Below are positions 21,001-24,000 of a DNA stretch of 64,000 bases, piece after piece. Every line of letters begins with the position of its first letter. Within the stretch, counting starts at the first letter, position 1. A program made the position numbers. This DNA is from Escherichia coli (GTDB lineage Bacteria; Pseudomonadota; Gammaproteobacteria; Enterobacterales; Enterobacteriaceae). The DNA lies in assembly GCF_003334785.1 (NCBI RefSeq), contig NZ_QOWV01000019.1. One strand, written 5' to 3'.

Positions 21001-24000
21001 TGACTCATAAAGGAGATACCCCGATGACCATTACTCCGGCAACTCATGCAATTTCCATAAATCCTGCCACGGGTGAACAACTTTCTGTGCTGCCGTGGGC
21101 TGGCGCTGACGATATCGAAAACGCACTTCAGCTGGCGGCAGCAGGCTTTCGCGACTGGCGCGAGACAAATATAGATTATCGTGCTGAAAAACTGCGTGAT
21201 ATCGGTAAGGCTCTGCGCGCTCGTAGCGAAGAAATGGCGCAAATGATCACCCGCGAAATGGGCAAACCAATCAACCAGGCGCGCGCTGAAGTGGCGAAAT
21301 CGGCGAATTTGTGTGACTGGTATGCAGAACATGGTCCGGCAATGCTGAAGGCGGAACCTACGCTGGTGGAAAATCAGCAGGCGGTTATTGAGTATCGACC
21401 GTTGGGGACGATTCTGGCGATTATGCCGTGGAATTTTCCGTTATGGCAGGTGATGCGTGGCGCTGTTCCCATCATTCTTGCAGGTAACGGCTACTTACTT
21501 AAACATGCGCCGAATGTGATGGGCTGTGCACAGCTCATTGCCCAGGTGTTTAAAGATGCGGGTATCCCACAAGGCGTATATGGCTGGCTGAATGCCGACA
21601 ACGACGGTGTCAGTCAGATGATTAAAGACTCGCGCATTGCTGCTGTCACGGTGACCGGAAGTGTTCGTGCGGGAGCGGCTATTGGCGCACAGGCTGGAGC
21701 GGCACTGAAAAAATGCGTACTGGAACTGGGCGGTTCGGATCCGTTTATTGTGCTTAACGATGCCGATCTGGAACTGGCGGTGAAAGCGGCGGTAGCCGGA
21801 CGTTATCAGAATACCGGACAGGTATGTGCAGCGGCAAAACGCTTTATTATCGAAGAGGGAATTGCTTCGGCATTTACCGAACGTTTTGTGGCAGCTGCGG
21901 CAGCCTTGAAAATGGGCGATCCCCGTGACGAAGAGAACGCTCTCGGACCAATGGCTCGTTTTGATTTACGTGATGAGCTGCATCATCAGGTGGAGAAAAC
22001 CCTGGCGCAGGGTGCGCGTTTGTTACTGGGCGGGGAAAAGATGGCTGGGGCAGGTAACTACTATCCGCCAACGGTTCTGGCGAATGTTACCCCAGAAATG
22101 ACCGCGTTTCGGGAAGAAATGTTTGGCCCCGTTGCGGCAATCACCATTGCGAAAGATGCAGAACATGCACTGGAACTGGCTAATGATAGTGAGTTCGGCC
22201 TTTCAGCGACCATTTTTACCACTGACGAAACACAGGCCAGACAGATGGCGGCACGTCTGGAATGCGGTGGGGTGTTTATCAATGGTTATTGTGCCAGCGA
22301 CGCGCGAGTGGCCTTTGGTGGCGTGAAAAAGAGTGGCTTTGGTCGTGAGCTTTCCCATTTCGGCTTACACGAATTCTGTAATATCCAGACGGTGTGGAAA
22401 GACCGGATCTGACGCGACATATTCAGCTCTGATATACTCGCAGGTCTTTTCAGACCTGCGGTCCAGGAGTAGAAAGTGGCAGTCGCCATGGATAATGCAA
22501 TTTTAGAAAACATCTTGCGGCAAGTGCGGCCGCTCATTGGTCAGGGTAAAGTCGCGGATTATATTCCGGCGCTGGCTACAGTAGACGGTTCCCGATTGGG
22601 GATTGCTATCTGTACCGTTGACGGACAGCTTTTTCAGGCCGGAGACGCGCAAGAACGTTTTTCCATTCAGTCTATTTCCAAAGTGCTGAGTCTCGTTGTC
22701 GCCATGCGTCATTACTCCGAAGAGGAAATCTGGCAACGCGTCGGCAAAGATCCGTCTGGATCACCGTTCAATTCCTTAGTGCAACTGGAAATGGAGCAGG
22801 GTATACCGCGTAATCCGTTCATTAATGCCGGTGCGCTGGTGGTCTGCGATATGTTGCAAGGGCGATTAAGCGCACCACGGCAACGTATGCTGGAAGTCGT
22901 GCGCGGCTTAAGCGGTGTGTCTGATATTTCCTACGATACGGTGGTAGCGCGTTCCGAATTTGAACATTCCGCGCGAAATGCGGCTATCGCCTGGCTGATG
23001 AAGTCGTTTGGCAATTTCCATCATGACGTGACAACCGTTCTGCAAAACTACTTTCATTACTGCGCTCTGAAAATGAGCTGTGTAGAGCTGGCCCGGACGT
23101 TTGTCTTTCTGGCTAATCAGGGGAAAGCTATTCATATTGATGAACCAGTGGTGACGCCAATGCAGGCGCGGCAAATTAACGCGCTGATGGCGACCAGTGG
23201 TATGTACCAGAACGCGGGGGAGTTTGCCTGGCGGGTGGGGCTACCGGCGAAATCTGGCGTTGGTGGCGGTATTGTGGCGATTGTTCCGCATGAAATGGCC
23301 ATCGCTGTCTGGAGTCCGGAACTGGATGATGCAGGTAACTCGCTTGCGGGTATTGCCGTCCTTGAACAATTGACGAAACAGTTAGGGCGTTCGGTTTATT
23401 AATGCAGTCTCTCGATCCACTCTTCGCGCGTTTATCCCGTTCAAAATTTCGCTCTCGCTTTCGTCTGGGCATGAAAGAGCGTCAGTATTGCCTGGAGAAA
23501 GGCGCGCCAGTCATCGAACAACATGCGGCGGATTTTGTCGCTAAACGTCTTGCTCCGGCATTACCGGCTAATGACGGTAAGCAAACCCCCATGCGCGGGC
23601 ATCCGGTGTTTATCGCTCAGCACGCCACCGCGACCTGCTGTCGCGGTTGTCTGGCTAAGTGGCATAACATTCCGCAGGGTGTTTCGTTAAGCGAAGAACA
23701 ACAACGTTATATCGTGGCGGTAATCTATCACTGGCTGGTTGTACAGATGAATCAGCCATGAGAATTGCGGAAAACGACAAAATAGCATTCCCAGGGTACC
23801 TTTATTTGCCGCCGCTGTCAGCGAACATGCTATCTTGGTTCGGTCAGTATTGATAGTCTGGATTTCTGGCCTTTGCTTGCGGACTGGTTCAGTGAGCAAT
23901 TCTCAACGGGCGTGTTGATCGTGCCTTGTATGCTGACGTTGGCTATTCCTGGAGTGCTGCCGCGCTTTAAAGCAGAACAGATGATGCCCGCCATCGCGCT

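Follow-up and report, generated by a model that had tools for sequence, protein, structure and literature searches.

A candidate internal promoter and leader stem-loop in the spacer between sad and glsB of Escherichia coli

The genes sad, glsB and yneG of Escherichia coli probably form an ordinary operon that has a candidate internal promoter and a leader stem-loop before glsB and a stop/start overlap into yneG. The 63-nt spacer between sad and glsB holds a perfect hairpin that the original prediction had treated as an element trailing sad. In the best explanation as a whole, which we hold with reasonable confidence, the spacer serves glsB as its regulatory and leader region and is not a 3′ element of sad. 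The principal evidence is a -10 motif that abuts the hairpin, is invariant among related bacteria and keeps its distance to the glsB ribosome-binding site whatever gene lies upstream.

Materials and methods

The window is a 64-kb stretch of E. coli DNA, the reverse complement of MG1655 near 1.61 Mb. Coordinates are those of the window, features are on its plus strand, and the MG1655 position is 1635727 minus the window coordinate. The gene for succinate-semialdehyde dehydrogenase, sad (yneI; 21024–22412), was taken from the ORF list and the RefSeq annotation and matches NCBIfam NF010575 with 1031 bits (cut-off 855). The glutaminase B gene, glsB (yneH; 22476–23402), starts with GTG and matches NF002132 with 612 bits (cut-off 381); its Shine-Dalgarno (SD) sequence AGGAG, read from the sequence, lies 6 nt 5′ of the GTG (22465–22469). 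The product of yneG (23402–23761) is a DUF4186 protein of unknown function (Pfam, E = 4e-52), for which neither a solved-structure relative nor an NCBIfam match was found. The published transcription start of sad (Kim 2012) converts to about position 21001.

Spacers were compared among 80 Enterobacteriaceae loci, which give 72 distinct spacer sequences. Invariant columns and base pairing were counted over 58 distinct spacers, and column identity over 74 loci. Transcription starts were placed by standard sigma-70 geometry, about 6–9 nt past the -10 hexamer. In counting T[A/G]ATG overlaps between glsB and yneG, 61 were scored directly and 4 more were added in which the script had picked an upstream TTG and TGATG was visible.

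Results

The hairpin occupies 22439–22460, with arms CGCAGGTCT (22439–22447) and AGACCTGCG (22452–22460) around the loop TTTC. It had been described as an 8-bp hairpin; the structure is real and the stem one pair longer, with 9 perfect pairs of which 6 are G-C. The hairpin energy is -14.5 kcal/mol (z = -7.4 against shuffles). Perfect hairpins of at least 9 bp number 9 in the window, against 1.7 ± 1.5 in dinucleotide shuffles, and from these counts the chance expectation of such a hairpin is about 0.002 per 63-nt spacer. Having no U-tract, it is not an intrinsic terminator, in line with the original prediction: no T-run follows the stem on either strand (GTCCAGGAG comes next on the plus strand, AGTATATCA on the minus strand), and a terminator scan left it uncalled on both. 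Rfam 15 covariance models gave no match at E ≤ 5 across 20700–24200. No other copy occurs in the window at up to 3 mismatches, and a 96-nt query hits, at the median, one place in each E. coli genome; membership in REP/BIME or another dispersed repeat family was rejected on this single-copy status.

In the 80 loci TATA[C/A]T is the sole invariant block of the spacer, and TATA-T are its sole invariant columns in the 58 distinct spacers. The SD is nearly invariant, with AAGGAG at least 90% conserved. The distance from the -10 to AAGGAG is 21–27 nt, nearly always 24–25, in all 80 loci (72 distinct sequences), and it holds with sad, a chemoreceptor gene or something else upstream. Identity reaches at least 0.9 in 18 of the 21 columns of CTCTGnTATACTCGCAGGCC (74 loci); at glsB third codon positions of the same loci mean identity is 0.62 and only 7.8% reach 0.9. 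The module is found after sad, after a gene of 530–560 codons or after other sequence. A terminator-like hairpin stands 20 nt upstream of it in Pseudocitrobacter, and the Klebsiella oxytoca group has unrelated flanks, yet TATAAT at the same position.

In genera with a further gene between sad and glsB, the module remains beside glsB; sad then has unrelated strong hairpins or terminators behind it and no such module. By this comparison the module is shown to travel with glsB and not with sad, which contradicts the view of the hairpin as an element trailing sad. Because the conserved -10 motif lies directly 5′ of the hairpin and is placed relative to the glsB ribosome-binding site, we would assign the hairpin to the glsB leader rather than to the 3′ end of sad. 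The processing or stability role first suggested for it is possible.

About 60% of lineages retain the stem, some compensatory changes among them, and others have lost it. Loop and spacer length vary among relatives. At least 7 of the 9 pairs are kept in only 34 of the 58 distinct sequences. Enterobacter, Lelliottia, the K. oxytoca group and C. amalonaticus have a weak stem or none, and TATACT stays in several genera that lost the hairpin; the four E. coli variants that diverge most among those sampled have the hairpin unchanged. Pairing holds in 77% of pair cells over the 58 sequences, against 22–41% for slid registers, and 34 double-sided changes are spread over 5 pairs. Compensatory examples are T-A in Escherichia against C-G elsewhere, and A-U replaced by U-A in one locus (L031).

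The covariation score of the stem was reached by none of 500 shuffles, while RNAalifold predicted no consensus structure and no pairs, and several genera lack the stem. A strand-asymmetry test (48 G.U against 39 A.C cells) found no asymmetry and does not distinguish RNA pairing from a DNA palindrome; Watson-Crick symmetry holds in only 68% of pair cells. The 5′ arm is much more conserved than the 3′ arm, which suggests that promoter or DNA constraints, and not pairing, lie behind much of the conservation of the stem region.

A consensus scan places the extended -10 motif TGaTATACT, the candidate glsB promoter, at 22430–22438, with TG preceding the second hexamer. The motif abuts the hairpin, and the palindrome starts one base after the -10. 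The same scan gives a -35-like hexamer, CTGACG (22409–22414; 4/6 matches), 18 nt before the -10, and the TGA stop of sad (22410–22412) lies inside it. CCTGACG is at the same spacing in most loci and only 4 nt from the -10 in short-spacer loci, so this hexamer appears to be either no true -35 or a dispensable one. Extended -10 promoters do not require a -35 hexamer. TGNTATACT has a single occurrence in 64 kb, which equals the chance expectation, so the case for a promoter rests on conservation and not on the match. Sigma-70 probably reads the conserved TGnTATACT of glsB, and we infer that it does so in vivo, with a predicted start window at 22443–22447 (MG1655 1613284–1613280, minus strand).

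Published genomic SELEX with RpoD holoenzyme has a peak in the sad-yneH spacer, listed for an operon "yneHG", at a resolution too coarse to single out TGnTATACT. That paper's own hexamers, TTTTCA-17-TAGAAA, differ from our assignment. We rejected them (TTTTCA at 22447–22452, TAGAAA at 22470–22475), since they would put the start within coding sequence and TAGAAA is part of a variable stretch. The yneH level is reported to be raised in rpoS mutants, which fits a sigma-70 and not a sigma-S promoter; a sigma-S promoter, considered because of TATACT with C at -13 in many genera, is disfavoured on this ground. Sigma-54 spacing (-24/-12) does not fit the spacer when judged by eye. The start-site list of Kim 2012 has sad and yneF and no entry for yneH or yneG, and Adams 2021 has at this locus only an antisense 3′ end inside yneH. 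The extended -10 abutting the hairpin and the published RNA polymerase site in the spacer had both been overlooked in the original prediction.

The stop codon of glsB (TAA, 23400–23402) and the start codon of yneG (ATG, 23402–23404) overlap by one base in TAATG (23400–23404), as had been noticed from the sequence. A T[A/G]ATG overlap occurs in 65 of the 67 related loci with a callable yneG ORF, the glsB stop being TAA in Escherichia and TGA in most others; in its place two Trabulsiella loci have TAG and then TTGATTATG. No SD of its own was found for yneG within 5–10 nt of the ATG, the nearest purine run being GGG, 14 nt upstream. The conserved overlap and the lack of a yneG SD would fit translational coupling of yneG to glsB.

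Co-expression of the three genes under YneJ/PtrR is already known from the literature: sad, glsB and yneG change together in yneJ/ptrR mutants by RNA-seq, qRT-PCR and proteomics, which agrees with what had been proposed from the glsB/yneG overlap. GlsB protein likewise rises with Sad upon derepression of the sad promoter (proteomics). The terminator scan finds no terminator between sad and glsB in E. coli. Given the published co-expression, read-through from sad and the candidate internal glsB promoter probably coexist. Independent promoters with no read-through had been named as the pattern that would speak against an operon; in view of the extended -10 and the SELEX site the former part is probably true, and the latter is probably false.

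Discussion

We propose that the extended -10 TGnTATACT starts a glsB-yneG transcript about 30 nt 5′ of the GTG. Given where the palindrome starts, the candidate promoter would have the 5′ arm of the hairpin as its GC-rich discriminator and start region. With no U-tract on the hairpin and no terminator behind sad in E. coli, sad transcripts are expected to read through, and the complete 9-bp hairpin would form only in RNA read through from the PtrR-controlled sad promoter. In that RNA it would most likely be an intercistronic stem-loop, and we infer that it affects the stability or processing of the mRNA segment. The promoter-proximal transcript would have only the inner 4–5 pairs left, as a 5′-terminal stem. 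Translation of yneG would occur through termination-reinitiation at TAATG.

The candidate promoter resembles intra-operon extended -10 sigma-70 promoters (TGnTATAAT, e.g. galP1) in the TGn directly before a 5/6 -10 hexamer, in the weak or dispensable -35 and in its location within a short gap between co-directional genes, where downstream genes receive both read-through and their own transcription. It differs in being known here from sequence and in having a palindrome arm as its GC-rich discriminator. With intrinsic terminators the element shares a GC-rich stem-loop after a stop codon, 27 nt past that of sad, but it lacks a U-tract on either strand, its downstream genes are co-expressed with sad, and in other genera it tracks glsB rather than sad.

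Stem-loops that modulate mRNA decay include the ompA 5′ UTR hairpin, the malE-malF REP stabiliser and the papB-papA processing element. The sad-glsB element is similar as a stable leader or intercistronic stem-loop beside an AU-rich stretch with no terminator function; unlike these it is recognised from its sequence, it is not a REP, and its stem is only partially conserved. Overlapping stop and start codons are a known arrangement for translational coupling, as in trpB-trpA (TGATG). The glsB-yneG junction has the same one-base T[A/G]ATG overlap with no separate downstream SD, kept across genera, the difference being that its coupling is a prediction.

The role first suggested for the hairpin implies a model with no internal promoter, in which UAUACU and the stem-loop form an RNase E-type processing site or a barrier to 3′-exonucleases, and the sad and glsB-yneG segments of one transcript differ in stability. 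This would account for PtrR co-regulation of all three genes, for the lack of a yneH start in the Kim 2012 list, for the AU-rich stretch adjoining a stable hairpin and for the compensatory changes in the stem. We nevertheless consider it unlikely: the invariant block is an exact -10 consensus match, the module persists with a terminator or another gene upstream, RNA polymerase holoenzyme binds the spacer in vitro, several genera keep TATACT and lose the hairpin, and the K. oxytoca group has TATAAT instead and lacks the hairpin.

The palindrome could also act at the DNA level, as an operator at which a putative dimeric regulator over the glsB start controls the internal promoter independently of PtrR; to our knowledge there is no candidate factor for the dyad. 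A perfect 22-bp dyad does lie exactly over the predicted start region, wobble pairs show no strand asymmetry, the 5′ arm beside the -10 is very conserved, and a weak, sub-threshold YneJ ChIP signal 'upstream of glsB' has been published. Unequal conservation of the half-sites, the limited Watson-Crick symmetry (68% of pair cells) and the variable loop and spacer length make an operator improbable, and by eye the dyad resembles neither the PtrR box from the literature, TTCTCGATTCGTGAA, nor other operators common in E. coli. A LexA box was rejected because the dyad gives CTG-N9-CAG where N10 is needed, and none of the LTTR T-N11-A, PtrR, Cra, Nac and NtrC boxes fits (all judged by eye).

Two further readings concern what the stem does in RNA, if anything. 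The hairpin might nucleate a longer helix in read-through RNA, in which GCUCU (22426–22430) pairs with the glsB SD, so that sad-promoter RNA translates glsB poorly and internal-promoter RNA translates it well. The predicted probability that the SD is unpaired is indeed 0.02 in read-through RNA against about 0.8 for RNA starting at 22443–22447, and rises to 0.6 when the hairpin is broken; in 68 of 78 loci the read-through context lowers SD accessibility, a raw count, since accessibility generically drops in longer RNAs. However, occlusion of the SD is at least as strong with 11% of shuffled upstream sequences, for which reason we demoted this idea to a minor rival. CTCT is also missing from short-spacer and K. 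oxytoca loci, and the joint rise of GlsB and Sad on derepression runs against it, so that we find it very doubtful.

It is hardly less doubtful that the stem has no function, its 5′ arm being conserved by promoter constraints and its 3′ arm being a lineage-specific by-product that is perfect by accident in Escherichia. Loss or weakness of the stem in many genera, the missing RNAalifold consensus and the much lower conservation of the 3′ arm are as this would have it; the chance expectation for a perfect 9-bp stem, a pairing level well beyond that of slid registers and compensation in separate lineages are not.

Within the preferred reading of the spacer as the glsB regulatory and leader region, the two RNAs might even form a switch. 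RNA from the sad promoter would carry the full hairpin, with the glsB ribosome-binding site possibly occluded, and RNA from the internal promoter would start inside the hairpin and lack it; the palindrome would then make stability or translation of glsB-yneG promoter-dependent, or serve also as an operator for a further regulator. We give this elaboration little credence.

The finding has little importance beyond annotation: it corrects the hexamers of the SELEX study and provides exact coordinates for the site. glsB-yneG is probably fed both by read-through from the PtrR-regulated sad promoter and by a conserved internal promoter of constitutive type, and these two inputs reconcile the older annotation of 'sad' plus 'yneHG' with the newer 'sad-glsB-yneG'. 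Conserved coupling to glutaminase B, as predicted here for the DUF4186 gene yneG, would be a modest functional clue for an uncharacterised family.

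Locus and gene order

The window comes from E. coli and corresponds to MG1655 at ~1.61 Mb in the opposite orientation (MG1655 coordinate = 1635727 − window coordinate). Its ORFs for sad (yneI; 21024-22412), glsB (yneH; 22476-23402, with a GTG start) and yneG (23402-23761) are annotated on the minus strand of MG1655 at 1613315-1614703, 1612325-1613251 and 1611966-1612325, respectively. Sad and GlsB were identified by NCBIfam equivalog models with scores over the curated cut-offs; YneG is a DUF4186 protein for which a search for a relative of solved structure found none. A 1.5-kb query matched 5,419 of 5,426 complete E. 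coli genomes at 95-100% identity, with the same three genes annotated there, and ~14 of the 5,419 covered <80% of the query. Five matches to the sad-glsB region in this collection fall on plasmid-annotated records.

The neighbouring dgcF (23873-24820) encodes 315 aa, as in K-12, and is a 5′-truncated remnant of an intact ORF of 472 aa. Other Escherichia (compared loci L003 and L004) and E. coli OkiPb01707 (L082) carry a further 498 bp that are absent from the window at 23834/23835; the yneF transcription start of Kim 2012 converts to ~23843, ~9 nt past this deletion junction.

A probable promoter upstream of glsB

The extended −10 motif TGaTATACT (22430-22438) adjoins the 5′ side of a hairpin in the sad-glsB spacer, with a −35-like CTGACG that includes the sad stop codon 18 nt upstream. 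One TGNTATACT per 64 kb, the number found, is expected by chance, so the match alone means little, and we therefore gathered 80 orthologous glsB loci (72 distinct spacer sequences) from Enterobacteriaceae genomes. In all 80, TATACT or TATAAT lies 21-27 nt (nearly always 24-25) before an AAGGAG Shine-Dalgarno (SD) sequence, and CTCTGn almost always precedes the hexamer. Alignment of 58 distinct spacers left only T-A-T-A-.-T of the hexamer invariant, while the TG, the CGCAGGCC following the hexamer and the SD were ≥90% conserved. Among 74 full-length loci, 18 of the 21 columns of CTCTGnTATACTCGCAGGCC have identity ≥0.9; for third codon positions of glsB in the same loci the mean identity is 0.62 and 7.8% reach 0.9. 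Strong purifying selection acts on this block. Conservation of the GC-rich discriminator exceeds what ordinary promoter function would seem to need. In the Klebsiella oxytoca group the flanks are unrelated and the hairpin is missing, yet a consensus TATAAT stands equally far from the SD, as expected for a promoter and not for an RNA motif. In the four most divergent E. coli variants sampled, the −10, stem and SD are identical, and every difference falls in the 3′ end of sad or in the −35/−10 spacer. A conserved internal glsB promoter is therefore probably active next to the hairpin.

Comparative gene order assigns the module of −10 motif, hairpin and SD to glsB and not to sad, and the hairpin is part of the glsB leader. 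Whereas sad lies directly upstream of glsB in Escherichia, Salmonella, Kluyvera and Raoultella, a gene of 530-560 codons, described as a chemoreceptor gene (PtrR preprint), intervenes in many Citrobacter, Enterobacter, Kosakonia, Lelliottia, Phytobacter and other genomes (including loci L008, L011, L029, L037 and L062, ~1200-2940). There the same module follows the stop of the intervening gene, again 62-63 nt before glsB, and that stop lies within CCTGACG, as does that of E. coli sad; unrelated, strong GC hairpins or terminators come after sad itself, with no TGnTATACT. In Pseudocitrobacter, 20 nt before the module, there is a hairpin that ends in a T-rich tail and resembles a terminator.

Four Citrobacter loci (L012, L014, L023 and L034) retain just a 3′ remnant of the chemoreceptor gene after sad, and a conserved TGTCAT-repeat region, then (T/C)GTA(G/C)ACTCGC, lies upstream of the chemoreceptor gene. 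E. coli OkiPb01707, the sole sampled genome without glsB-yneG, has a full-length diguanylate cyclase gene after sad, and its homology to the window ends inside the hairpin 3′ arm (window 22455/22456; L082, 3001-3130).

The spacer hairpin

The original prediction of a perfect 8-bp hairpin between sad and glsB was right about the hairpin and one pair short in its length: CGCAGGTCT-TTTC-AGACCTGCG at 22439-22460 forms a perfect 9-bp stem (−14.5 kcal/mol, z = −7.4). Perfect hairpins of ≥9 bp number 9 in the window versus 1.7 in shuffles, and ~0.002 are expected by chance per 63-nt spacer. Searches for dispersed-repeat copies of the hairpin found none, and an Rfam search of its region matched no family. 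It has no T-run 3′ of it on either strand and drew no call from a terminator scan; in line with the original prediction, it is not a terminator.

Covariation supports the stem only partially. Standard pairs occupy 77% of pair cells in the 58-sequence alignment, against 22-41% with the 3′ partners slid; 34 pair cells changed on both sides, and none of 500 column shuffles reached the covariation score. Compensatory changes include T-A in Escherichia versus C-G elsewhere, with a C.A intermediate in Salmonella, and A-U to U-A in Silvania confinis (L031). RNAalifold found no consensus structure in the spacer alignment, and only 34 of 58 sequences keep ≥7 of the 9 pairs; predicted stability is −17 kcal/mol in Pluralibacter, −9 in Salmonella, −8 in the C. 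freundii group and ~0 in Enterobacter wuhouensis and K. oxytoca. The numbers of G.U (48) and A.C (39) cells are balanced, so that plus-strand RNA pairing is indistinguishable from a DNA dyad. We infer that the stem most likely acts on mRNA stability or processing, as a leader or intercistronic stem-loop that does not terminate transcription.

Standard sigma-70 geometry would place the transcription start at ~22443-22447, inside the 5′ arm (22439-22447), and only RNA reading through from the sad promoter would then form the full 9-bp stem; in promoter-proximal RNA no more than GGUCU/AGACC would be left, a 5′-terminal stem of −4.5 kcal/mol. The 5′ arm (CGCAGGCC) is mostly at ≥0.9 identity and the 3′ arm (22452-22460) at 0.5-0.9, which fits a second role of the 5′ arm as discriminator and start region. 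The read-through stem is also predicted to seed a helix between GCUCU (22426-22430) and the SD and so occlude the latter: the predicted probability of an unpaired SD is 0.02 in read-through RNA versus ~0.8 for starts at 22443-22447, and 68 of 78 loci differ in the same direction. Against this, occlusion is as strong with 11% of shuffled upstream sequences, and proteomics shows GlsB protein increasing together with Sad on derepression, so we keep occlusion only as a minor rival to the stability or processing role.

Transcription of the three genes

There is good support for read-through from the sad promoter: in ptrR/yneJ mutants sad, glsB and yneG shift together by RNA-seq (PtrR preprint), qRT-PCR and proteomics, and these papers name the unit the sad-glsB-yneG operon. 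Genomic SELEX placed an RpoD-holoenzyme site in the sad-yneH spacer, assigned to operon 'yneHG', with proposed hexamers TTTTCA-17-TAGAAA (Shimada et al. 2014). These map to 22447-22452 and 22470-22475; as a promoter the pair would start transcription within coding sequence, and its hexamers lie partly in a variable stretch, and we take TGaTATACT to be the genuine element. Expression of yneH is higher in EDL933 rpoS mutants, so that a sigma-S promoter is disfavoured even though the hexamer is TATACT. The Kim 2012 catalogue has starts for sad (~21001) and yneF and none for yneH or yneG, which counts against a glsB promoter. Adams et al. 2021 (supplement) list a 3′ end of RNA on the minus strand at ~22900 (MG1655 1612827, plus), antisense to yneH/glsB.

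The original interpretation is thus right in part, on the lack of a terminator and on co-expression, the latter already known. It is incomplete, since it overlooked the conserved, probably active internal glsB promoter adjoining the hairpin, and the hairpin belongs to the glsB leader.

The glsB-yneG junction

The predicted overlap of the glsB stop and yneG start is present as TAATG at 23400-23404. A one-base T[A/G]ATG overlap occurs in 65 of 67 loci with a callable yneG ORF, despite the difference in stop codon (TAA or TGA); in the two Trabulsiella genomes a short gap replaces it, and about a dozen loci lack yneG. The yneG ATG has no SD 5-10 nt before it. Such a layout is typical of termination-reinitiation coupling, by which yneG translation would depend on that of glsB. 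The layout of sad, glsB and yneG is ordinary operon architecture.
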